Assembly: GCA_951406725.2 (NCBI GenBank)
Contig: OX597829.1
Span: forward strand, 8,866,001 to 8,930,000
DNA from: Octopus vulgaris
Taxonomy: Eukaryota
Reading direction: 5' to 3'
Length of the DNA: 64,000 nucleotides
In this document: positions 618 to 64,000 of the stretch, in pieces
How positions within the stretch are numbered: the stretch's first letter is position 1
Layout of the letters: every line of letters starts with the position of its first letter
Position numbers and translations under genes: made by a program
Notes under the pieces: model-generated
Databases searched by the model: none
Seen by the model: the letters and a program-made list of their open reading frames with translations, nothing else
Told to the model about the DNA's origin: nothing

Positions 618-1114
618 TCAATATTGGTCAATATTGTTATATGTTACCACATTTGTTTGCAAGTGGGTAACCTTCTGTTTTAAATTTCTGGGTTCATAGG
701 ATTATTCTCAAGGGGGCTTCGTCATTCATATGTGCCATCCTTGCTACATTCACCCATCTTTTTTTAAAACATTCGCTAGACAAAACTTGCCTCTCTACTC
801 TCACTTTCCTTTTCAAGTGGTACTTGAAGAAGTTGATGAGAGATTGACCAGAGAGGAAACTGCTTGTCTCCAATCCTTTCAGACGCGTCCATCAGATACA
901 TTCTTTCGCCATAGCCACAAGGATGATGAAAATAGCTCTTCCTTCCCGTTTGAAGGAAGGAGGTGTGACAATATTGACGATTGACTCAGCTGATAAACCG
1001 ACTCGTCCCACACGTGACAGCAGTTGTTCGACATAAGCCCACAGGTTGGAGATTGTTGGACACTGCACGAGTGCGTGCAGAGCGGTTTCGTCGCTCTGAC
1101 CTCATCTCGGGCAG

Positions 1115-5155: not shown

Positions 5156-5270
<115 letters not shown>

Positions 5271-5655
5271 TCTTTCTTTATGAGCCACACAGGGCTGCAC
5301 ACAGACAGGACAGATTACAAAGTAGAGCTTTTCTTTTGGGGGAGAGAAAAAATATAAAGGTTGGGTAGGTTTTCGATCAAAAGGGAACGTAAAACGGAAA
5401 GCAGAAATAAGGGAAAAAAAACAAGAAAGAAAAAAAAAGAAAAAGAAAAAAGGAAGAGAAACAAAAAAGGAAAAAAAACGATCAATAGGGATCGTGTATC
5501 ACAGTGTCATGATGTAAGGTGTAAAGGGGAAGCAGATAAAGTTTATCTGAGGGAAGAAAAGCCTACGGAAAAGACCACGATAACCTCGGTCAATATTCTT
5601 ACATGTTACCACATTTGTTTACAAGTAGGTAACCCTCTGTTTTAAATTTCCGGTT

Positions 5656-8600
5656 TCATGGGGTTATGCTCAAAGTGGCTTCGTCATTCATACGTGCCAT
5701 CCTTAGTACATTCACCCATCTATTTTTTTAAACATTCGCTAGACAAAACTTGCCTCTCTACTCTCACTTTCCTTTTCAAGTGGTACTTGAAGAAGTTGAA
5801 GAGAGATTGACCAGAGAGGAAAGTGTTTGTCTCCAATCATTTCAGACGCGTCCACCAGATACATTCTTTCGCCATAGCCACAAGGATGATGAAAATGGCT
5901 CTTCCTTCCCATTTGAAGGAAGGAGGCGTGACGATCTTAACGATAGACTCGGCTGATAAACCGACTCGTCCCACACGTGACAGCAGTTGTTCGACATAAG
6001 ACCGCATCTTGGGCAGGTCGGCCCAGTGTTTCTCGAGCTGTGTCTGTAGAGCTTATCCCGAACATGTAGCGCTTCTCGGTAGCACTGCCAGGCCAGGGAT
6101 CTCGGGAAGTTGTCCATGGGCACTGGCCCGAAAGTCGTCCTGAACAGGCGGGTCAGGTATTCCTCGTCGACGTCCAGGTTCGCCCCGAGCTCGTCGTCGT
6201 ACCTCCCCTCCACTAATCGCCTATAGAATGCTTTGGATGTGTGGAAGTCACTCAAGGTCAACCCGGGACAGCATAGTTGCTTGAGAGCAACGCAACACTC
6301 GTGGTGCCATTCGCACTCCCTCGGCCTCATTTTGATCCACTACTGCAGTTCTGTCATGGAGACGAGTTGCGGGAAAGCGTGCCTCACAAACGGCGACCAC
6401 AACTGTTCACCGTCGTCTACGTAGAGCCTGAGATGTCGCAGTCTCAGCGCGTGTCTGCGCATCATCAACCACGGCATGCCCAGTCCTCCTTTTAACGGGT
6501 GTTGAAAGCTATTGGATCGCCTGAACATCGGGACGCATCCTTTCCACAAGAAGCGAAAGAGAATGCATTCTAGTTTAGTGATGGTAGGGTCGGGACAAGG
6601 TACGACGGTCAGGCGGTAGTAGATGACGGACGCGATGTACGAATTCGCCACCTCTGCCCGACCTTTTAGGGACAGTTTCCTCTCGGCCCATTGCCTGTAA
6701 GAGTGACCACCCTACTCGTTATCTCGTTCCAGTTCTTCTCCATTTGGAGGTCCGGACCAAACCAGACCCCGAGCAACTCGTCCGGACCGTCGGTTCAGCG
6801 TTCCAAGACGGCGACGCTGGTGGACGGCATGGGCTTGCTTCTCCAGGTGCCGAGTCGCAAGCCCACTGACTTTTCCCGGTTGATTTTCGCTCCTGTCGCC
6901 GCTTCGTAGTTTTTCAGTGTCTCGCCGACCTGCTCGATGTGCTCGTGGCTAGACACTATGACGGTGACGTCGTCCGCGTATGCAGACACGCACGTCCCGC
7001 ATCCCAGTTCTCGCGGGATGCCCCTCAGAGTTGCCGGCTTCCGCAATAATGGCTCGAGAAACAATACGTATAGAAGCGACTTGAGGGGGGCATCCCTGAC
7101 GGACCGAACGTGCGATGTCGAAAGGTCTCGATATATGTCCATTTACGCGAATTACCGAACGTATGCCTCTGTACAAAGCGGCTATCCAGCCGCGGAAGAC
7201 GGGATCAAAACCAGCCGCTCTGAGGACAGCCTCAAAGTATCGATGGTCTACCCTATCGAAATCTTTCGATTGATACAAATTGATCAGCGCCCCACCCATG
7301 CCAGGTTCGTTAACTACTCTGTCTATGACGTAGCGAATCAGTTGAAGGTTGTCATGGATGCTCCGGCCCGGCACGGCGCACGTTTACGCCTTGTCGACCA
7401 GTTTCTCGATGACAAGCGCCAACCTCTTGGCCAAAATTTTCAAGTCTGCATTAAGCAGAGTGATGGGCTTAAAGTTGTCAATTACTTTCCTCATGTTTAG
7501 ATCTTTCTTCAGCAGCGTTACGGCCCCTCGGCTCACAAAACCAAGAATGCTCTCATTTTGCTGCCAGTTGCAGTACACCGCTGCCAAGACGTCTCCAAAC
7601 AAGTCTCCAAACAACTGTAAAGCTCGTAGGGTAGACCATCCAAACCCGGCCATCCAACCCCTCGAGTATTCTGCCATCGCGTCCTGCACTTCCGCCGCCG
7701 TGATGGCACCTTCGCAGCGCCCTGCCTCTCTTGTCGAGAGTCGTGGTAGGCTGTGTAGGCAGGCACTGAAGTCCACCCTACGTTCTTGCCCACCACTCGT
7801 CCCGAACAGTCGGGCAAAATGCTGTTGAAAGGCCTCACACATTTTGCTTGTCTTGAGCAATTCGCGCCCCTGTTCATCTACCAGAGACCGAATGGTGGCT
7901 TTGTTGCCCTGCTGCGCCTCTGCCACCCGGGCTTCTCTCGCGGCTCCAACACCTTCGTTCCTTAGAGCACGCATCCTAGCTCTGACAGCACACCCTTCGT
8001 GTTTGGCGTTGAAGTGTTCATCGAGGGACAACCTCGCCGCCAAAACGTCGGATGCGATGCTGCTTCTTATTGCCTCTTCTAGCTTCTTAACTAGCTCAGC
8101 CTCTACTCTGTTTCTATCTATGGCTAGTGCTTCGCTGTACCTAATCGCTTCCGTTTTTACTGCTCTCTTGAGTGCAAACCACCATTTGTTGTTGATGATG
8201 GCTCCCGTCAAAGCCCTCTTTACTAGTGTGCTAATCCGGTCTCTGAAAACCTGTCTCGATGGGAAAGACGCGTTTAGTTTCCAGTATTCGGGACCCTGCC
8301 TATGTGTCTTACCTAAGTCTAGCGTACATGTCACAAGTTTGTGATCCGTGTAGCTGACTATGTGGAATTGTGGAAATCCTATGTTATCTCTATCCACTGC
8401 CCTACACAGTATCCTATCTAGATACGATCTCGACGACCCGATGCGGTTGCTCTATGTCCACGTTGGTGCATTCGGGTGATCTAGTCGGTACCTGTCAGAC
8501 AGTTGAAAGCGTCTGAGCAGGTCTCTGAGGCATTTGCCTCCCCGTCTATTCCTATCTCTGTCCACGTAGTCTACATGCGTTTCCAAGGTAGCATTCCAAT

Positions 8601-9020
8601 CCCCCACTAAGAGTAAAGAACGAGACGTTCCCAAGAATACTTCTAGACGTCGAAAGAAATCCGCCCAACCTGTTAAGGGCGGTGGTAGACTGATACGAGT
8701 CGAAAAGCGCACACATTGCTGCCGTCGACATCCAGGACGACTAGTCTACCCTCCCGTTCTACGAATATTGTCTTTACTTTGAGATCCAGACTCTTACGAA
8801 AAAGTACCGCGGTGTCACTACCGCCCATTCTTGGCAGACAGGGGGGGAAATAAATGCTGAACTGTCCGCCAAACATGGTCTTTAGGGCCCGCGAATTGTA
8901 GATTCTGGTGTCACTTATGGCTATGATTTCTAACTTATGTGACTTTAAGTCATTTAAGAGGTACCCCTGTTTCCAAGGGGACCCCAAGTCACGCGCATTT
9001 ACACAACCAATCTTGAGCAT
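5656..9020 (-). pseudogene. LINE ORF2 (AP endonuclease + reverse transcriptase + C-terminal CCHC), frameshifted
   Basis: ORF pieces MLKIGCVNARDL (APE start), LLLVGDWNA, TDHKLV, NFKPITLLNADLKILAK, QSKDFDRVDH, SVRQGCP, AYADDVT, CPRCG; ends TLSITP* at 5656. Confidence 0.92.
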
Positions 9021-9064
9021 AATCCTAATGAATTAGAATACAAGCGAAAGGAACAGAGGGTTAC

Positions 9065-10969
9065 TTACTGCTCGAAAGTTTTTGCTTTCTCCTCCTTTGG
9101 TTTGTCCTCGAGGAGATCTCAGTAAAGTTTCCTTGTGAGTTATTTTTGACATTTACCAACCGCACTGGGGAAAATGCCTTTTAGTGTGTGGTGCAGACTT
9201 CTGGAGATATGTAATATTTTGATGTGATCCGGTGGTGTTGTGTATGGGTGATTGTTTGTTTTTAAGTCATCTTCTGTTATGTTTGTTTTTGATTTGATGT
9301 ATTCCATCAAATTTGTGTTTTTAGTGTCTATAGCTGTGAGCATGTTTGCTGTATATATTTTTGTGGTGTTGGTGTGGCTGTTATTTGTGTTGGGTTTCGA
9401 AATGTCTTCGGGAGATGCATTTCCCCCTGCTTTGTTTGTTTTGCATTTGGTTTGGTTGTGTTTCTGCTCTTTTTTTCCTTCCTTTTCTGGCTATTTGCCA
9501 TTCCTCACTGGTTTCATCTTCCGACGAAATTTCTGAAGAATCAGAAGGGGGTAGGGGTATGTTGTAGGCTTCAATGTATGCCTGTATAAGTGGTTGTGTT
9601 GTTGTTTTCGTTGCTGTTGGTTGTTGAGTGTTTGTGTGTGGTAAGTGCAGTATAGGGGATGGGGAATAAGTTTTTGTATATTATTTTTGTTTTTCTGTTC
9701 CTTTGGTTCTTGCTGTTGTTTGTGGTGTTGGTACTTTCTCATGTGTTTTCTCAGGTGTTGTATAATTTTTGGTTGTTGATGGATTAGCTTGGTGTGCTTC
9801 TCTTGTCGTCTTCTGTGTTGATGGTGGTGTGGGTAGTAGTGCTTTATTCTCGTAGTGTTTTGGTTGTGGTAGTGGTTGTTGTTTTTGCTCCTTTTGTGCA
9901 GTGGTTGGACATTTCTTTTTCAAATGTGTTTCACTTCCGCACAAATAGCAACGTGATCGCCTGCCCTCTACCACTACATAGAGTTTGTAGCCTTCTGGCA
10001 GTTCTATAGTGGTGGGTATCTTTTCTCTTGTTTCATCAAATTGAAGGAGGAATTGGATCGATTTTCCCACCCAGTTTTTCTGTTCTAGAACGGCGATTTC
10101 AAGAATGTTTGTCTCCGCCATTTCAAAGCAGATGGCAGAGACTAACCATTGTATTTCGACTTCGGGTGGTACATTTTTTATTTGGACTTTCGTCACCCTC
10201 TGGCCTAAATAGGTTGGTATCATCACCAAGTCGTCTGAATGCAGCTCCAATGAGGAAAATCGTTTTGCTAGATTTTCATTGTGGAAACGTACTTGGACTG
10301 TGTCAAATGTATGTCCTCAACTAACACTCCTTTGAATCCCATGCAGGACGAAGGCATTTTTCAATTTTTTCCTGCGGTGCATTTTCTGGTCGTCATGTTT
10401 TCTTGTTGATGACTTTATAGATTATTGTTTTTTTTGTGTATTTTCCACGATGTGTTGTGGAATGTGAAGATGCAAATTATCTCCTTCTTTGGTGAAGAGT
10501 GCTTTTGTGAGGTTTATTTCTTGTGTGGTGAATTTTACGATTGTCCGTTTCTGTTTTGTCGCATCCGCGAAATTCGTTTTAATTTTGGTGGTGTTAACAG
10601 CAGAGGAGTTAGTTGTAGCAGTTGAAGTCGTGGTAGTGGTGTTGGCGGTGCTGATTTCGTTTTTGTTGTTGTTGGTAGTGATGATGGTGGTGCTGGCATT
10701 CATGTTTGCGTCTGTATTCGTTTTTGAAATCCCTTTCTCTGTCCTTCTTTCATCGACAAGTGGTGTAGGGAGTGGGGGAAATCTAAGTTAATGTCTTTGG
10801 TGGCGGCGATGGTGAATGGTTTTGCGACATTAGTTTTGTTGTTGTTGGTGGTGGTGGTGGTGGTGACAGCGGTGTTCAAGCTGCGAGGTTTAGCAGCTAA
10901 TGGCAGCAATAGTGTTTCGCTACCGTTCCGCATGACTGGCAGGCTAGCCACGTAGTTTCTGGTTTCCAT
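9065..10969 (-). pseudogene. LINE ORF1 (Thr/Asn/Gln-rich, zinc knuckle), frameshifted
   Basis: Pieces 10700-10975, 10422-10703, 9681-10250 (CYLCGSETHLKKKC), 9491-9742 and 9140-9343. The last frame continues through two premature stops to ...KTFEQ* at 9065. Confidence 0.8.
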
Positions 10970-11182
10970 TTTCAAACTGAAAAATGGCTAAAAAGAAAGT
11001 TTTGAAAATATTTGGCCATTTCACCCATACAGGGGCGGAATTCCACGTGAATAATTCTCAGGTTTTTTAGTGAATGAACTTGCACAAAGATTAAAACAAA
11101 ATATTTGACAAGGAGTTTTAAACATGTAAAAGTGGCCAACTTACGTGGAGCCCATTTGACTGGCGACCGTCCATGTTGGGGC

Positions 11183-11377: not shown

Positions 11378-13679
11378 CTTTTTATTGTAGCCACACAGGG
11401 CTAAACACAGAATAAAAATGGACGAAATACAATGTAGAATTTTTTCTTTTTTCTTTGCAAAAAAAAAAGCGTTTGATCAATAGGGATCTGTGGGTTGTGT
11501 GGTGTATAAAAAAACAATATATATATATAAAGTTCACAGTTTAGGTGTAGCCTTGGAAAGAAAAACCTACAAAAAAGACCAAGGTCACCGCAGACAGTTC
11601 GAAAATGAACACATGAGTAAGTCACCTTACCTCTCGTTGTCTCTTTTGGTCACAGATTTACGCTTAAAATAGAGTCGTCTTCCATACTGACCATTTTTGC
11701 CACTTTTACCCACTTTTTATTAAAACATTCGTTCGACAAAGCCTTCCTCTCTATTCTAATCCTCCTTTTCAAGTGGTACTTGAAAACGTTGACGAGAGAC
11801 TGACCAGAGAGGAAGGTGTTTGTTTGCAGTCCTTTCAAACGCGTCCACCACACACCTTCTTTCGCCATAGCCATCAGCGTAACGAAAACCGTTTTCCCTT
11901 CCCGTTTAAAGGAAGGTGGTGGAACAATATTCACGATAGACTCGGCCGATAAGCGGGCCCGTCCTACACGCGACAACAGCTGTTCGACGAAGGTCCACAG
12001 CTCTGAAATATCTGGACACTGCACGAGTTCGTGCAGAACGGTTTCGTCGCTCTGACCGCATCTCGGGCAGGTCGGTCCGGTGATGGTTTTCGAACCGTGC
12101 CTGTAGCTCTTCTCTCGAACGGGTAGTGCGTCTCGATAGCACTGCCAAGCCAGGGATTTCTGGAAGTTATCCATAGGCCCCGGCCCGAACGTCCTCCTGA
12201 ACAGGCGGGTTAGGAATTTCTCGTCGACGCCCCATGTTTGCCCCGAGTGTGTCGTCGGACCTCCCCTCCACTAGTCCTCTATAGAACGCTTTAGTCGTTT
12301 GTAAGTTGCACAAGATTGACCCCGGTCGGCAGAGCTGCTGTAGAGCTTGGCGACACTCTCGGTACCAATTGCCCAGTTTCGGTCTCTTCTTGATCCACGT
12401 TTGCAGTTCGGTCAGTGAGACGAGCTGCGGGAAGGCGCGCCTCACAAACGGCGCCCACACCTGTTCACCGTCATCGATGAAGTTCCAGAGATGTCGCAGT
12501 CTCAGCGCATGCCTGCGCATCATCAACCATGGCATGCCCAGTCCTCCATTCAACGGATGTTGACAGCAAATGGACTTCCTCACCATCGGAACGCCACTCT
12601 TCCACAGGAAGCGGAAGAGTATGCGCTTCAGTTTGGTGATGGTGGCGTCGGGACAAGGCACGACGGTCAGGCAGTAATCGATGACGGATGCGATGTACGC
12701 GTTCGCCACCTCCGCCCGACATTTTAGAGACAGCTTTCTCTCGAACCATGTTTGGCTGAGAGCGACCACTCTACTCGTGATCTCGTCCCAGTTCTTATCC
12801 ATTTGGAGGTCCGGACTGAACCAGACCCCGAGCAATTTAACCGGTCCGTCCGTCCAGCGTCCCACTACTGAGCCGCAGTCGGACGGCATGGGCTTGCTTC
12901 TCCAGGTGCCGAGCAGCAAACCCACTGACTTTTCCGGGTTAATCTTCGCTCCCGTCACCGTCTCGTATTTTCTTAATGTCTCGCCTATCATCTGGATGTG
13001 TTTGTCGCTCGACACTATGACGGTGACATCGTCCGCATATGCCGACACGCTCGTCCCGCAACCCAGTTCCCATGGGATACCCCTCAGTGTCGCCAGCTTC
13101 CGCAGTAGCGGCTCGAGAGTCAATACATACAGAAGCACCGACAGGGGACACCCCTGACGGACCGAACGCGTGATGTCAAACGGTTTTGACAGGTGACCGT
13201 TCACCCTAATCAAGGTAGCGATCCAACCGCGGAAGACGGGACCGAAGCCAGCCACCCTGAGGACGGCCGCCAAGTACCGATGGTCGACCCTATCGAAGGC
13301 TTTAGACTGATCCAAATTTATCAGCGCCCCACCCATGCCAGGATCCTTAACTACCCTGTCCACAATGTAGCGCATCAGATGGAGGTTGTCATGTATGGCT
13401 CTGCTCGGCACGGCGCATGTTTGCGCCCTGTCGACCAGTTTACCAATGACAAGCGCCAACCTCTCGGCTATTACTTTGGCCAAAATTTTCAAATCTGCGT
13501 TGAGCAGAGTGATGGGCCTGAAATTATCTATAAAATTCCCCTTGTTTGGGTCTTTCTTCAGCAACGTCACTGCACCTCATCTCACGAAACCGGGGATTCT
13601 CCCGTTTTGTTGCCAGTTGTAGTAGACTGATGCCAAGGGTAAAGCATCTGATCCAGGCGACTTATCCCTTGCGCATCCC
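11377..13679 (-). mobile_element. 5'-truncated L1/Tx1 LINE (copy 3, a diverged subfamily)
   Basis: Same 3' terminal motif (AGCCACACAGGGCT on +) and homologous ORF2; both ends in GATA arrays. Confidence 0.93.
11650..13570 (-). pseudogene. ORF2 RT domain (467-aa open piece 12167-13570) plus frameshifted C-terminus (11650-12174)
   Basis: NFRPITLLNADLKILAK, LDQSKAFDRVDH, SVRQGCPLS, AYADDVT, LLGVWF, CPRCGQSDETVLHELVQC. Confidence 0.92.
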
Positions 13680-14520: not shown

Positions 14521-14876
14521 GTAGAAGGTCATGCCCCAGTACCCACAGTTTATGTATACACAGGTAGTGTTGTTAACAGGGTGTTATGTAGACGTATATA
14601 TATTTATATATGCATCTATTTTTCTTTTCTTTTCTTTTTTTGTATATATATATATATATATTGATAAAATGGTAAGACAACAAAAGAATGAAAGAGACCA
14701 GAGACCTCGATATTATGTAAATAGAGGAATTTATCTGTAAATGTAGTATGTGACAATTATTCGGTAGCCAAGATAAAACTCTGAGTTTCGGATGCCAAAG
14801 TGAAAATCCGGACATCGGAATATATATATAAGATTTTATAGTTTGCTTGAAGTATTGTATATGGAATATAATATTG

Positions 14877-15062
14877 AAAGATTTAAAAGGCCAAACAATG
14901 CAAATAGATAAATAGATTTTAAGATGAGGTAGCGTAAACTAAAAGTAAGTTATCTGGTAATCTTTGGATACATATACGACCAAAGATTCCCGGGTAATTT
15001 ACTTTTAGTTTACGTTACCTCATCTTAAAATCTATTTGCATTGTTTGGCCTTTTAAATCTTT
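14877..15062. repeat. About 186-bp fold-back palindrome
   Basis: AAAGATTTAAAAGGCCAAACAATGCAAATAGA at the left end and its reverse complement TCTATTTGCATTGTTTGGCCTTTTAAATCTTT at the right end; about 10-nt loop near 14970. Confidence 0.9.
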
Positions 15063-15352
15063 GAACGTTATGCATGTCTTCAGGTTGCTAGTCCTAGCTA
15101 GTGGGGGTGCTTGCCTCCCCTTTGCAAATTTAAGGACACAGGAAATGTGTCAAAGCCGACAGGAAGTGTCGATGCTTCCTAGGGCTATATAGTGGTGGTG
15201 TGATTCCCTCTACGGGACTGTCATGTTATGTTGACATTATACAACCACTCTATATAATAATAATTTGAGGGAATATTATTCCTAACTTACAGGGAAAAAT
15301 TCAATTTAGAAATACTAAATCAAATTTCACAAAATATATATATATATATATA

Positions 15353-15662
15353 AATTAGAAAAAAACACCTTTTATCAATTCAAAATGAACAATTAACTTA
15401 CATCATCTAGAAAAAAACATATAATAGAAATATTAAATATAAAATAACAATAATATACCGATGATTAAGTAATGTACAAAATAATAAATAAAACGTATAT
15501 ATTTGTTACTCTACCGAATATATACGTTTTATTTATTATTTTGCAATTTACCTAATCATCGGTATATTATTGTTATTTTATATTTAATATTTCTATTATA
15601 TATAATTTTGTAGGTGGTGTAAGTTAATTATTCATTTTGAATTGATAAAAGGTGTTTTCTTC

Positions 15663-15667
<5 letters not shown>
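15353..15667. mobile_element. About 315-bp fold-back (MITE-like) element inserted in (TA)n
   Basis: Arms AATTAGAA...CACCTTTTATCAATTCAAAATGAA and TTCATTTTGAATTGATAAAAGGTG...TTCTAATT pair almost to the centre (about 15508). Related ends at about 30755 and 32030-32068. Confidence 0.8.
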
Positions 15668-15722
<55 letters not shown>

Positions 15723-17380: not shown

Positions 17381-17610
17381 CATACGTGAATATGGATAAA
17401 ATTTCTTTATTTGTGTATCAAGGCAACCATTGATTTCATGTTAAAAAAATATCTTACTATCATAACAATTTTTGAAGCCGATCACATGGAGGAGTGGAGT
17501 TCGTCTCTATTCCGGATGAAAATATGCGCGCGCGTGCGCATATACATACATATCGTCAAAGTGTCATATATCCGAAAAAGACGCACACTCTAAAGCATAG
17601 ATCAGTCATG

Positions 17611-17897
17611 TATTTATATGCAGCTAAGTCTATTTCCGGTCATAGAGTGACCAATGGTTTCACATCCATAAAGGGCCTGGCCCCATGGACGGTTCGTCGC
17701 TCTAAAGCCGAAGACAAATATATCTCTTCAACTTTAGGAGGCAGGAGACCGCAACGGAGTTTGCCTCAAAGCGTTGAAGAGTTATAGTTGTCTTCAGCTT
17801 TAGAGTGTGACAAGTCGTTCACGGGGCTTGGCCCTTTATGGATGCGAAACCATTGGTCAGTCTATGACCGGACATTGGACTTAAATGCATATAAATA
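17611..17897. repeat. About 287-bp imperfect fold-back element
   Basis: CCGGTCATAGAGTGACCAATGGTTTCACATCCATAAAGGGCC pairs with GGCCCTTTATGGATGCGAAACCATTGGTCAGTCTATGACCGG; pairing continues to a small loop near 17750. Confidence 0.88.
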
Positions 17898-18949
17898 TAT
17901 ACATAAATATATACATATATGTGTGTGTCCGTGAGTGTGTGCGTCTATCTGCGCGTGTGTATGAATGGATGGAGGGATGGACAGTTGGATCAATATGCGT
18001 ACACACACATACACACTTGCATGTATGTATGTGCATACATACTTACAAATAGGTATGCGTAATCTAATTTAGTTGGTGGTGTTGCATTGAAATGAAATTT
18101 GTCTTTAATCGTAGAAAGAAAACTAAGAACTCGCATTCATTATCAGCGACAGCCAAAGGAAGCAGGAGGTAATTTGAAGATACTAAGAAACAATTAACTT
18201 AAAGTAGAATTCGGTGAACGGAAACCATTCGGAAGCCCATTACGCACGCATGCATACGCACAACACGCACGCACATACATGTATGTATGAATGCATACAC
18301 ACATGCACGCGAGCTTTTGTGCGTATGTATATGTTTGTTATCGTGTGTATATGTTTTTGAGTGCGTGTTTGTTTGTGTGTGTATGTTAAAATAATGTACG
18401 GTGAAAATAGTAACACAGAAGACAAAGAGAAAACAACGTGTATACGTTTAAGCTCAGTGTAGAATCAAGAAAGTAGAAGCGACTTAAAGTTTCCGATTTT
18501 TTCCTGACATTTAGTTACACGGTAAAAGTTTTGAAAAAGACTGAACAAACCGGAGTGACGAAAAACATGTGCTATTCTGTATCTAGTCATGTTTAAAATG
18601 GTGAAGTTTAAGGGACCAGAAGTGACCCAGAAAGAATGGAAAATTAACAGGGGAGGTAATTACATGTAGATTATATGTTTATGTGTGTTGTAGCATGTGT
18701 ACACAGCTGCGAACTCAATGTATATGTGGTGTTATGCATATGTGCATACCTCTGTGTGCATGTATGGGCTGTTTGTCTTTTGAATTCATAATTACTTTCA
18801 TCATGATCAACAAACAAATTGGTATTGTAAAGTGCCATTCACATGCTTATAGCGATCCTCGATTGCGAGGAACTTCTACTGATGGAAGTCCTTCGCGAAA
18901 GAGGATAGTTTCTGCTAAACATATGCGAGTGCAAAGTTGGAGCGTAGTG

Positions 18950-26051: not shown

Positions 26052-27616
26052 TTATGTTTCTTTAGCCACACAGGGCTGCACACAGACGGGACAAATTACA
26101 AGGTAGAGCTTTTCTTTTTGGGGATACAAAAGAGGGTTTGGTTTTCGATCAAGAGGGATCGTAAAAGGAAAGAAAGAGGAAAGTAAAAAGGGGGGGGATA
26201 AAAAATAAAAGGAAAAAGAAAAAAGGGTCAATAGGGATCGTTATCACAGAAATGTCAATATAAAGTGTAAAGGGGAGGACAGGTGAGGTTTACCCGTGGA
26301 AAGAAAAGCCTACGGAAAAGACCACGGTAACTTCGGTCAATGAAGTCACATGATTTTTGATTTTGATTTTTCCAGTTTCATCTCATGAGCTGTGGCCATG
26401 CTGGGGCACCGCCATTTGTTATATTTTTTACTAATAAGCAACTCTCTGTATTAATTTTTACGGTTCATAGGATCATAATCAAGGTGACTTCGTCATTCAT
26501 ACGTGCCATCCTTGCTACATTCACCCATCTTTTTTTAAAACGTTCACTAGACAAAACTTGCCTCTCTACTCTCACTTTCCTCTTCAAGTGATACTTGAAG
26601 AAGTTGATGAGAGATTGACCAGAGAGGAAAGTGTTTGTCTCTAATACTTTCAGGCGCATCCACCAGATACATTCTTTCGCCATACCCACAAGTATGATAA
26701 AAATAGCTCTTCCTTCCCGTTTGAAGGAAGGAGGCGTGACGATATTAACGATAGACTCGGCTGATAAACCGACACGTCCGACACGTGACAGCAGTTGTTC
26801 GACAAAAGCCCACAGGTTGGAGATTGTTGGACCCTGCACGATTGCGTGCAGCACGGTTTCGTCGTTCTGCCCGCATCTCAGGCAGGTCGGCCCAGTGTTT
26901 CTCGAGCCGTGTCTATAGAGCTTATCCCGAACGGGTAGCGCTTCTCGTTAGCACTGCCAGGCCAGAGATCTCTGGAAGTTGTCCATGGGTCCTGGCCCGA
27001 AAGTTGTCTCAAACAGGCTGGTCAGGTGTTCCTCGTCGACGCCCAGGTTCGCCCCAAGATTGTCGTCGTACCTCCCCTCCACTAATCACCTATAGAATGC
27101 TTTGGTTGTGTTGAAGTCATTCACGGTCGACCCGGGACGGCAGAGTTGCTTGAGAGCAACGTGACACTCGCGGTGCAATTCCCCCTTCCTCGGCCTCTTT
27201 TTGATCCACGACTGCAGTTCTGTCATGGAACGAACTCCGAGAAAGCGTGCCTCACACACGGCGACCACACCTGTTCACTGTCGTCTACATAGAGCCGGAG
27301 ATGTCGCAGTCTCAGCGCGTGTCTGCGCATCATCAACCAGGGCATGCCCAGCCCTCCTTTTAACGGGTGTTGGCAGCAAATGGATCACCTGAACATCGGG
27401 ACGCATCCTTTCCACAAGAAGCGGAAGAGAATGCGTTCTAGTTTGGTGATGGTAGGGTCGGGACGAGGCACGACGGTCAGGCGGTAGTAGATGATGGACG
27501 CGATGTACGCGTTCGCCACCTCCGCCCAACCATTTAGGGACAGTTTCCTCTCGGCCCATTGCCGGGCGAGAGTGACCACCCTACTCGTTATCTCGTTCCA
27601 GTTCTTCTCCATTTGG

Positions 27617-31311: not shown

Positions 31312-31357
<46 letters not shown>

Positions 31358-31360
<3 letters not shown>

Positions 31361-31914
31361 GCCCTGATGCAGTACCAGGCAGTGGCTCTCATGGCTTCTG
31401 ATCTTAACTGATTGGAAGTGTTATCATGTACATTGTTTTGTCTTGGTATAAAAGATGGGCTACAGCAAATATTCTGCTCAATACCACAGATTTCCTTGTC
31501 AGTTGTTTGACCTTAACCAGTTGAGCATGTCCCTTAGTGGCTGACGATATATGCATCTCTGATCACGAGCAGAAGTAGTGGGGGAGCATCATAGCCATGT
31601 GTTGAGAGGGATTCTTTGGGGTTTGAATAATTCACCTCTGGAAACATGGGTGGTTCTTTCAACATCCTTAAACAACCCTTATTCAGGGACCGTTTGAGCG
31701 GGATGGGCTACTCAACCTGAAGAAAATTCTAACTGGGCCCCACCTGCAAGGTCATGTGCTGTTTATCTTGATATGAGATCACCATGTCGCGCACATATGG
31801 TTGTGATGCATGTGCCTGGTGTACCCTTATCAGACGGGTAGTCATGATGGGTATATTGTGCTTCGTATATTTTACCTCAGTGTCACTTTGATGGCATGCA
31901 CTGCTCTCTCACTC
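31358..31914. mobile_element. About 557-bp non-coding interspersed element embedded in (AAT)n
   Basis: Sharp GC increase against the flanks; (AAT)n immediately on both sides. Confidence 0.6.
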
Positions 31915-31960
<46 letters not shown>

Positions 31961-60519: not shown

Positions 60520-63500
60520 ACTTTCTTTATTGGCCAAACAGGGCTGGACACAGAGGGGACAATTACAAACGTAGAGCTTTACTCTTCGGAGATGGAAAAG
60601 GAAAAAGAAGAAAAAAGGAAACAAATGTAAAATTTCGATCAAAAGGGATCAGAAGAAAAAAAGCGATAAAAAGGGATCGTGTATCACAGAAAGAAATAAT
60701 TTTTTTTTTAAAGTAACAAACAAGATTAGGTTCATCCGTGGAAAGAAAATCCTACAGAAAAGACCAGGCATGGAGGAAATAAAACATATGAGAGCAAAGT
60801 GCTCTCTCTCTCTCTCTCTCTCTTTTACGATTTACAAGATCATGCTCAAAATCGTTTCGTCACTCGCACGCACCATCTTTGCTGCATTCACCCACTTTTT
60901 TTTGGTACTTGAAAAAGTTGATGAGCGATTGGCCAGAGAGGTAAGTGTTTGTCTCTAATCCTTTCGCTCGAGTCCCCCACACACATTCTTTCACCACAGC
61001 CACCAGTATGATGAAAACTGCCTTGCTTTCCCGGTTGAGGGAAGGTGGCTCTATTGTCACGATAGACTCGGCCGACAGGCGGACTCGTCCCACACGTGAC
61101 AGCAGCCGTTCGGAATAAACCCACAGGTCCGAAATGGATGGACATTGCACGAGTGCGTGCAGAACGGTTTCGTCGCTCTGACCGCATCTCGGGAAAATCG
61201 GTCCAGTGTGTCTCGAACCGTGCCTGTGGAGCTTATCCCGAACAAGTAATGCTTCTCGATAGCACTGCCAGGCCAGAGATCTTTGGTGATTGTCCAAATG
61301 TCCCGGCCCGAAAGTTGTCCTAAACAGTCGGGTCAAGTGTCTCTCGTCGACGCCCAGATTCTGCCCGAGAACGTCGTCGCACCTCCCCTCCACTAATCTT
61401 CTATAGAACGCATTTGTTGTAATGAAGTCGCACAAGTTTGGTCCCGGATGGCAGAGTTGCTTGAGAGCAACGCAACACTCGCGGTGCCATTCACCTAGCC
61501 TTGGTCTCTGTTTGATCCACGATTGTAGTTCTGCAAAGGAGACTAGCTGCAGGAAAACGCGTCGCACAAAAGGCGACCACACCTTTTCACCATCGTCTTT
61601 GAAGCGCCGGAGATGTCGAAGTCTCAGCGCATGTCTGCGCATCATTAACCACGACATGCCTAGCCCTCCATCCAGCATCCCATGATGGAGACATGATGGA
61701 GACATGTTGGATGACATGAGCTTGCTTCTCCAGGTGCCGAGCCGCAAGCCCACTGACTTTTCCCTGTTAATTTTTGCTCCCGTTACCGCTTCGTATTCTT
61801 ATAGTGTCTCGCCGAAACAGGTCGATGTCTTTGTCTCTCGACACTATGACGGTGCCGTCGTCTGCGTATGCAGACACGCTCCTCCCGCATCCCAGCTCTC
61901 GAGGGATGCCCCTCAGCGTCACCAGCTTTCGCAGTAGTGGCTCAAGAGTCAATACATACAGAAATGATGAGAGGGGGCATCCTTGACGAACAGAACGCAT
62001 GATGTTAAAAGGTCTGGATAGATGACCATTTACGCGAACTACCGAGCGGATACCGCTGTATAAGGCAGCGATCCAACCGCGGAAGATGGGACCGAAACCA
62101 GCCGCTTTAAGGACAGCCTCCAAGTAGTGATGGTCTACCCTATCGAAAGCTTTCGATTGATCCAAATTGATCAGTGCCCCACCTATGTCAGGTTCCTTAA
62201 CTACCCTGTCTTTGATGTAGCGCATCAGATAGAAGTTGTCATGGATATTCCTACCCGGCATGGCACACGTTAGCGTCTTGTCGACTAGGTTTTGGATGAC
62301 ATGCGCCAACCTCTTTGCTAACACTAAATCTGCGTTGAGCTGAGTGATGGGCCTGAAGTTTTCTATGACTTTCCCCTTGTTTCTTTAGATGTGCCACAGT
62401 TCCTCACTTTACAAAGGCCAGTTGCAGTAGACAGCTGCCAAGACGCTTCCAAAAAAGTCTGCCATATGACAATAAAGTTTCTAGGGCAAACCATCCAAGC
62501 CTGTTGACTTGTCTCCTGCGCAGCCTGCCATCGCATCCCGTACGTCTCTGGCTGTGATGGGTCTTTCACAGCACACCGCCTCTCTTGCTGAGAGTCGTGG
62601 CAGGCCATGCAGGTAGGCACTAAAGTCGACCCTGCGTTCTGACCCAACAGTCGTCCCGAAAAGTTGGGCAAAGTGTTGTTGAAAGGCCTTACACATCCTT
62701 TCAGGATCGAGTACTTCGCGCCCCTGTTCATCTGTAAGAGACTTGATGGTGGTTCTGTTGCCTCGTTGTGCCTCCGCCACTCGAGCCTCTCGGGTGGCTC
62801 CAATTCCTTCGTTCCTCAGAGCAAGCATTCCCTAGCTCTGACAACGCATCCTTGGTGTTTGACGCTGAAGTGTTGGTCGACGGCAACCTCGCCGCCAGTA
62901 CGTTGGACGTGATGCCAGTTCTGAGTGTCTTTTCTGATTTCTTAACTAGGTCTCCCTCTATTCTATTTGGATCTAATGCTAGGCCCTTACTGTACCTAAC
63001 CGATTCTGCTTTAATTGCTTTCTTTGGGGTATAACACCATCTGTTGTTGACGATGTCACCCATCAATGCTCTCTTAACTAATTTGCTAATCCGATCCCTG
63101 TAAGGCTGTCGTGCCGTGAAAGACGCGTTCAGCTTCCAGTAACCAGGACCCTGCCTATGTGTCTTATCTAAGTCAAGTGTACAAGTCATAAATTTGTGGT
63201 CTGTGCAACTGACTATGTGGAAATGTGGACAATGTACACTATCCTTATCCACAGTCCTACAGAATATTCTATCTAAGTACGATCTAGACGACCCGATGCG
63301 GTTGCTCCATGTCCACATCGGCACATTCGGGTCATCCAGTCGGTACCTGTCAGACAGTTGGAAACGTCTGAGCAGGTCTTTGAGGCATTTGCTTCCCCTC
63401 CTATTACTATCTCTGCCCACGTAGTCTAGATGCATGTCCAGGGTAGCATTCCAATCCCCCACTAAAAGTAAAGGTGGAGACGTTCCCGGGAAAACCTCTA

Positions 63501-64000
63501 GATGTCGAAAGAAATCTGGCCGACCTGTTAAGGACAGTGCATAAACTGTTATCAGTCGAAAAGCACACCCATTGCTGCCATCGACATCCACAACGACCAG
63601 CCTACCCTCCAGGTCTAGGAAAATTGCTCTTACTTTGAGGTGCAGACTCTTCTGAAGAAGCACCGCGATACCTCCTCCGCCCATTCTCGGCAGACACGGA
63701 GAAAAATAGATGTCGAAATGTGCGCCGAACACGTGCTGGAGGGCCCGCGGGTTGTGGAGTCTGGTCTCGTTGATGCCTATGATGTGCAAATTTTGTGACT
63801 TGATGTCGTTTAGCAGGTAGCCTTGTTTCCAAGGCCCCCAAGCCACGTACATTTATACTACTTATTTTGAGCATGTTCCTGTCGAAAGTTGTGTTTTGCA
63901 CACGAAAGGGAGACAAGAGCGAAAGAGAGAGAGAGAGAGAGTTGCTTACTGCCTGAAAGTGCTTTGTCTTTCACCTTACAGTCTTCTTCCAGAAGGTTTT
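60520..64000 (-). mobile_element. L1/Tx1 LINE copy 5 (another subfamily): ORF1 end, frameshifted ORF2 63874-60832, 3'UTR; continues off the right edge
   Basis: MLKISSINVRGL (APE start), IIGINET, LLLVGDWNA, SYLDRI, TDHK, LDQSKAFDRVDH, SVRQGCPLS, AYADDGT; internal deletion near 61690. Confidence 0.93.

Follow-up and report, generated by a model that had tools for sequence, protein, structure and literature searches.

Cognate complementarity between the start and the end of ORF2 in L1-clade LINEs of Octopus vulgaris, and its possible role in ORF2 translation

The window under study, a stretch of 64,000 nucleotides (nt) from Octopus vulgaris (GenBank assembly GCA_951406725.2, contig OX597829.1, positions 8,866,001 to 8,930,000), carries on its minus strand fragments of a long interspersed nuclear element (LINE) with apurinic/apyrimidinic (AP) endonuclease, reverse transcriptase (RT) and zf-RVT domains. 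Two of these, copies 2 and 5 (Table 1), include both ends of the second open reading frame (ORF2), and both are decayed by stops and frameshifts. Copy 2 is 92.6% identical to the intact family D and copy 5 is 85% identical to family B (family letters are labels coined in this analysis); they belong to two separate families. An initial annotation had described the ORF2 of this element as bracketed by an inverted repeat that pairs its start with its stop. After realignment, positions 5624-5641 of copy 2 agreed with the reverse complement of 9052-9069 at 17/18 positions, and 5655-5673 paired with 9013-9032 with a 1-nt indel and 2 mismatches. In copy 5, segments 60834-60852 and 63864-63882 paired at 17/19 positions, and the (CT)n and (AG)n tracts at 63922-63941 and 60806-60825 at 20/20. 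The local complementarity score in 300-nt windows was 31 for copy 2 (200 shuffles: mean 17.6, maximum 27) and 40 for copy 5 (shuffle maximum 26), the top match in the latter being the low-complexity tract. A scan of the whole window for inverted repeats was dominated by microsatellites. The truncated copies of the window, which had been cited as keeping a recognisable 3' arm, do keep the arm of their own family; they add no evidence because they are 3' ends, in which this arm is kept regardless. The case is decided by the intact families found in other parts of the genome, not by the window copies.

The genome from which the window was taken (G000; 2.8 Gb, 227 contigs) was searched with the window fragments and with distant proteins, and 91 element loci were obtained. 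Eight lineages with an intact ORF2 were recognised, namely B (L031), C (L074), D (L104), F (L099), H (L106), E (L092), I (L198) and J (L194, a single copy), showing pairwise ORF2 protein identities of 53-95%, together with the older subfamilies A (L056, copy-2 type) and G (L070, copy-5 type). The AP endonuclease, RT and C-terminal zinc-finger domains (PF03372, PF00078 and PF13966) were found in 4/4 intact ORF2s, while zf-CCHC was detected in 3/3 ORF1s tested, one of them above the curated cut-off, with no match to RRM; intact ORF1s of the relatives are 496-752 amino acids long. Among solved structures, the closest protein to ORF2 is human L1 ORF2p (E 1e-60, against E 3e-20 for R2). Its domain layout, its separate ORF1 and an RT that among these solved structures is nearer to L1 than to R2 place the element in the L1 clade of LINEs as a new member. 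We presume it to be of the Tx1 type from its domain layout and repeat targets, traits that we take to mark that group; the RT tree was built without named Tx1 references. Relatives in other organisms stand at 38-44% identity (P0002-P0011) and are known here without DNA. For Octopus vulgaris, 13 recently active L1-Tx1 families have been listed, and the term ORF2 is absent from the main text of that paper (PMC13282606).

In all eight lineages, the segment comprising the ORF1 stop, the spacer and the ORF2 start is complementary to that comprising the last ORF2 codons, the ORF2 stop and the proximal 3' untranslated region (UTR). When the ORF2 start window was compared with the rest of its own element, the ORF2 end was the best complement in 12/12 representatives, and 0 of 206-235 internal windows reached it; for families I and J the corresponding counts were 0/232 and 0/230. 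The same result was obtained for 78 of the 80 genome copies having both ends (misses, L037 and L082), 11 of the 91 loci being left out with both ends lacking; these copies are not independent, and the unit of evidence is the eight lineages. As controls, distant L1/Tx1 elements from metagenome contigs were examined: 64 of the 80 loci were dropped, having no complete ORF2 with a recognisable start, and an ORF2-end complement was present in 0/16 of the complete elements. By duplex energy, 11/12 duplexes were better than all 100 dinucleotide shuffles. In predicted global folds of 3.8 kb, the start codon was paired with the 3' arm in 5/6 families and in 0/6 controls.

The two arms also vary together. 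In the 8x8 matrix of arms, each 5' arm scored best by alignment with its own 3' arm, and the cognate assignment ranked 1 of 40,320, both by alignment score and by duplex energy, although such ranks and p-values overstate independence because the lineages are related. A fixed-register test was performed for seven families, the 5' register being taken from protein homology and the 3' register from the distance to the stop. In this register, 99/119 cells were paired versus 30-51 in slid registers, and in the core helix (-1 to +9) the count was 67/70. Changes on both sides were detected in 10/23 pairs. Family F has altered amino acids at both ends of ORF2 together (MVK...LTMIL, versus MLK...LSMIL), and in families E, I and J the ORF2 stop is shifted by indels while the pairing has not moved. 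The proposal that the arms change together was thus borne out, but the co-variation belongs to the master lineages and not to the window loci, since copies 2 and 5 are decayed and come from different families.

Chance or low-complexity complementarity handed down from one ancestor is another explanation, and it could draw on the relatedness of the lineages and on the pyrimidine/purine tracts that contribute to the duplexes of B, G, H and copy 5. The AUG-anchored helix, however, is of high complexity, the arms of deep lineages have little sequence in common and yet stay cognate-specific, and the 16 distant elements do not show the pairing. This explanation is effectively refuted. We are highly confident that the complementarity is real, selected and lineage-wide; position, the cognate matrix and co-variation strongly support the idea that the eight lineages have a long-range complementarity which is under selection and co-evolves.

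The predicted structure is a bulged duplex of 45-70 bp spanning 3.4 kb. Its lower helix would join ORF2 codons 1-5 to the last ORF2 codons, and its upper helix would pair the ORF1 stop and the spacer with the 3'UTR over the initial 30-70 nt of the latter. The ORF1 stop is covered by the upper helix in C, D, F and H, and in B and I the helix begins within about 10 nt of it. The spacer from the ORF1 stop to the ORF2 start measures 28, 31, 41, 42, 49 or 66 nt depending on the family, in all three frames; whatever its length, the helix extends from about the ORF1 stop to +13 to +20 of ORF2, the first ORF2 codons always being included. The most conserved helix always lies within the ORF2 coding sequence at both ends. 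In C and F the extra spacer length is predicted to fold into a local hairpin. Longer spacers carry, inserted between the helices, a short GUGUGU...ACAC hairpin motif of family-specific sequence (L040, L072, L099, L070; window 63885-63900).

Family I shows the pairing in an element that has no start codon for ORF2. Its ORF2 is an open frame of 1138 codons with the first methionine at residue 137 or later in most copies, and in 24/24 scored copies (25 loci) no in-frame start AUG was detected while the pairing is kept. TCG stands in the AUG position and the 3' arm matches TCG. The family is young, its copies being 95-100% identical (L192, L193, L196-L199, L202-L226; L198:3830-4100). The spacer has a constant length in 43 exact-flank matches, 0/43 of which contain ATG, and includes GTAAGT, a branch-like ACTAA, a pyrimidine run and two TTTAAAC heptamers.

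Since the duplex is anchored at both landmarks of translation and carries a coding cost at both ends of the ORF2 protein (ORF2p), a role in translation is indicated. Among the functions suggested by the initial annotation (masking of the ORF2 AUG or of splice sites, bringing ORF2 termination next to re-initiation, cis-preference and substrate for ADAR), control of ORF2 translation would fit best. Our tentative reading, held at somewhat less than even confidence, is that the arms pair in the element RNA, loop out ORF2 and gate its translation, keeping ORF2 mostly shut. By analogy with the long-distance control of polymerase in plant RNA viruses, and with equal reserve, the duplex may control re-initiation on ORF2 after ORF1 termination. 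The closed RNA would act as an ORF1 message, the ORF1 stop lying beside the true 3'UTR at about 200-430 nt from the poly(A) signal. On terminating at the end of ORF1, a ribosome would melt the upper helix and occasionally re-initiate on ORF2, with or without an AUG; on reaching the end of ORF2, a ribosome would displace the 3' arm, and the arms would pair again once ORF2 is empty. The structure would be possible only on RNAs reaching the ORF2 end. The sign of the gate is uncertain: the paired AUG suggests repression, and the AUG-less family, together with the tombusvirus precedent, allows activation. Less probable, and on balance doubtful, is the stronger version in which the fold-back replaces the need for a start codon, positioning and gating post-termination ribosomes so that ORF2p would be made from full-length RNAs only, as one young AUG-less family might illustrate.

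Several observations weigh against a translation gate acting in the sense RNA. The pairing persists without an AUG in family I, and plain masking of the AUG is therefore not the whole story. Family E is weak, its duplex being matched by 7/100 dinucleotide shuffles; by energy alone, the cognate window of B2, D and copy 2 was narrowly outdone by a window internal to ORF2; and in the global fold of family H the start codon was not paired with the 3' arm. G.U and A.C mismatches numbered 55 versus 57 overall, 18 versus 13 at core positions (p=0.47) and 3 versus 0 within the core from -1 to +9, which gives no clear sign of a strand asymmetry. The pairing might therefore also be on the antisense strand or in complementary DNA (cDNA). 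Finally, the donor-like GTRAGT at the ORF1 stop is unexplained by the gate model.

Read-through or frameshifting to an ORF1-ORF2 fusion was rejected as a general mechanism, the spacer lengths falling in all three frames by family. In L031 and most intact copies of family B, ORF1 and ORF2 are in one frame, with a single TAA and an open spacer of 14 or 22 codons, and read-through is possible in B only.

One alternative is pairing at the level of DNA or cDNA, in which the arms would pair during reverse transcription or in single-stranded cDNA and template switching or repair would keep them alike, whether or not integration profits. Besides the missing preference for G.U in sense RNA, the duplex energies of the sense and antisense strands are alike in most families. 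On the other hand, the arms are bulged with interspersed mismatches instead of forming long perfect patches, the helix is tied to translation landmarks, and no ORF2-less copy joined at the tested donor/acceptor positions was found. We regard this explanation as rather improbable.

The geometry of the predicted duplex brings in protection from nonsense-mediated decay (NMD), the main rival at the RNA level, which is compatible with the gate and may even be the main purpose of the fold-back; its probability seems low, but a little higher than that of pairing in cDNA. In engineered fold-backs of similar geometry, 26 nt complementary to a site 42-50 nt past the stop suppressed NMD (PMC2689704). In the octopus element the pairing begins at the ORF1 stop, AATAAA lies 207-424 nt past the ORF2 stop, and shielding would need no AUG, consistent with family I. 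For shielding alone, however, the non-coding spacer and UTR would suffice, and yet the most conserved helix lies in ORF2 coding sequence at both ends; moreover, the engineered insert was placed directly before the poly(A) signal, compared with a distance of 200-430 nt here, and the pairing is seen in 0/16 of the other L1/Tx1 elements, which face the same problem.

The donor-like motif at the ORF1 stop leads to control of splicing, where the duplex would bridge or mask this donor to give an ORF1-only RNA (with ORF2 as the intron), an ORF1-ORF2 fusion (with the spacer as a mini-intron), or a block of both. Of the families and subfamilies, 8/10 (A, C, D, F, G, H, I and E) have GTAAGT or GTGAGT at the ORF1 stop, in two registers relative to the stop; the motif is possibly a U1 site. 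In A, B, C, D, F and H, the ORF2 stop is followed after about 80-110 nt by a pyrimidine-rich YAG/G acceptor, and in A, C, D and F the donor motif is covered by the 3' arm. An ORF1-ORF2 fusion would also account for the AUG-less family I. In contrast, E, I and J have no such acceptor, B has only a weak donor (GTAACC), and spacers of 28-66 nt are short for introns. Five exact-match junction patterns, which covered D/A, C, B and I only, detected 0 ORF2-skipping retrocopies in the genome for D/A, C and B and 0 spacer-removal retrocopies for I and D/A; as unspliced positive controls, 366 D/A donor junctions and 43 family I spacers were recovered. Removal of ORF2 or of the spacer by splicing left no retrocopies among these families, and splicing control appears improbable, more so than pairing in cDNA. 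The retrocopy counts do not bear on a role in masking alone. On L104, a contig of one sequencing run bridges the donor unspliced (L104:4031-5131; that the run is RNA is a guess). The joint predicted for ORF2 skipping (923/4507) was not among 15 of the 29 contig joints on L104 from four contig sets; as rare variants are dropped from contigs, this does not show its absence. No arm difference was present among 40 of the 620 contig differences. In contigs of two runs the 3'UTR is fused to the endonuclease region (L104:873-3940), corresponding to an internal deletion of about 3 kb in a related family, with ends other than GT-AG.

Heavy RNA editing is a feature of cephalopods, and an imperfect duplex of 45-70 bp with A.C mismatches might serve as a substrate of ADAR, the 3' arm then being an editing-complementary sequence for recoding of the stop, the start or the splice signals, with editing itself perhaps driving the co-variation. 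Among copies, the arms had double the A>G frequency of the ORF2 interior (20/364 versus 142/5070, p=0.006). T>C was, however, equally raised in the arms (22/321; difference p=0.52), indicating relaxed non-coding constraint, and no sense-specific A>G footprint supports the editing function put forward earlier. Furthermore, only in B/B2 does ORF1 share its frame with ORF2 and have no additional stop in between, and editing of the stop codon would therefore give no general read-through. ADAR editing is very unlikely as the reason for the duplex.

The features of the window are listed in Table 1.

Table 1. Element features in the 64,000-nt window (positions of the window)
Feature	Position	Strand	Remarks
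Copy 2, 5' arm	9013..9069	-	ORF1 stop TAA 9065-9067 (frame from family D), donor-like GTAAGT 9063-9068, spacer, ORF2 ATG 9018-9020, first codons
Copy 2, 3' arm	5624..5673	-	Final ORF2 codons, ORF2 stop TGA 5656-5658, proximal 3'UTR
Copy 2, ORF2 (predicted 3.4-kb loop)	5656..9020	-	AP endonuclease, RT and zf-RVT in intact relatives; stops and frameshifts
Copy 2, ORF1 and 5' leader	9065..11170 (5' limit approximate)	-	Broken; intact relatives 496-752 amino acids with zinc knuckle
Copy 2, 3'UTR	5156..5655	-	Acceptor-like YAG/G (AG 5563-5564), variant poly(A) signal 5277-5282, (GATA)n tail about 5156-5270
Copy 5, 5' arm with (CU)n tract	63862..63945	-	ORF2 ATG 63872-63874
Copy 5, 3' arm with (AG)n tract	60800..60853	-	ORF2 stop 60832-60834
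3' arm kept in rearranged A/D-type copy	662..712	-	
3' arm of 5'-truncated family C copy	11616..11670	-	94% to intact C
3' arm of 5'-truncated D/F-type copy	26433..26483	-	89-90%

Other pieces of the window were noted in addition. Positions 1-1115 form a rearranged copy, in which 1-617 is 98.5% identical to family D ORF2 and adjoins an older 3' end (626-1115). An isolated piece of 646 bp on the plus strand (31312-31956) shows 96% identity to the ORF1 region of family H. A frame of 356 codons on the minus strand (50738-51808) gives a weak match to RVT_1, is unlike the Tx1-type families and probably belongs to another LINE clade. Three segments, 14868-15071, 15334-15687 and 17608-17900, are long and self-complementary (81%, 91% and 79%, respectively), and are possibly palindromic repeats or similar to miniature inverted-repeat transposable elements. 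In the genome, families B, C, D and F end in (TATC)n and are often preceded by a TATC run, H ends in (ATT)n and I in (CT)n. Despite these different terminal repeats, the 3' ends of L031, L106 and L198 have in common a conserved 3'-terminal motif before AATAAA, a candidate recognition element for ORF2p. Head-to-tail arrays of full elements were observed for family E (G000:C5:29180417-29204151), with a spacing of about 5.28 kb, and for family H (G000:C4:93802392-93828597, C47 and C50), with a spacing of about 5.87 kb.

The octopus element agrees with L1-Tx1 LINEs in the ORF1 zinc knuckle, the AP endonuclease, RT and zf-RVT of ORF2, the 5'-truncated copies, and the copies ending and sitting in simple repeats; it differs in the ORF2-bracketing complementarity, seen in 0/16 distant elements, and in one family without an ORF2 AUG. 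Both SART1 and mammalian L1 have bicistronic RNAs in which ORF2 is translated after ORF1 termination, by AUG-independent re-initiation in mammalian L1 and, in SART1, with a requirement for RNA structure downstream of the ORF1 stop (reviews PMC5972666, PMC10275272, PMC11485995). In SART1, however, stop and start overlap and the structure is described only as lying downstream, with no pairing to the ORF2 end mentioned in the accessible parts of these reviews. In the accessible full-text literature, with Repbase reports and most subscription journals outside the scope, no description of a LINE whose ORF2 start is complementary to its ORF2 end was found; likewise, the terms 'inverted' and 'secondary structure' are absent from a eukaryote-wide L1/Tx1 survey (PMC5203782).

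A likeness also exists to plus-strand RNA viruses. In tombusviruses, a 3.5-kb contact between the proximal and distal readthrough elements (PRTE-DRTE) is required for polymerase synthesis (PMC3234231), and in tombusviruses, barley yellow dwarf virus (BYDV) and umbraviruses alike, pairing over 3.5-4 kb joins the end of the first ORF to the 3' region and controls polymerase output; such contacts have been proposed to cull truncated genomes and to favour replication in cis (PMC3234231, PMC5893793). The viral contacts are kissing interactions of 6-7 nt to a local stem-loop that stimulate read-through or frameshifting (PMC3234231, PMC5893793), whereas the LINE has a predicted bulged helix of 45-70 bp over both stop and start, no fixed frame between ORF1 and ORF2, and is a retrotransposon. 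The cis element may thus be said to resemble viral long-distance RNA control, but the fixed frame that characterises that class is lacking. As in the engineered poly(A) fold-back, pairing just past a stop would loop out a long 3' region; that construct is artificial, with its partner directly before the poly(A) signal and no second ORF (PMC2689704). The octopus pairing can also be set beside translational control in a bacterial phage, in which the partner lies upstream instead of at the end of the controlled gene. In the Min Jou interaction of MS2, the replicase start is masked by long-range pairing as long as the gene before it has not been translated; the partner is located in the coat gene, not in the end of the replicase gene.

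How a bicistronic LINE RNA yields a small amount of ORF2p, survives with an untranslated stretch of 3.8 kb after its first stop and prefers full-length templates is a long-standing open question. The present finding provides a defined cis element, natural compensatory variants in eight lineages and a natural AUG-less ORF2, with which this question becomes directly testable. Comparison of the ORF2 start with the ORF2 end is a simple screen that can be applied to repeat libraries. If the proposed gate is true, the long-distance control logic of plus-strand RNA viruses would extend to non-LTR retrotransposons.

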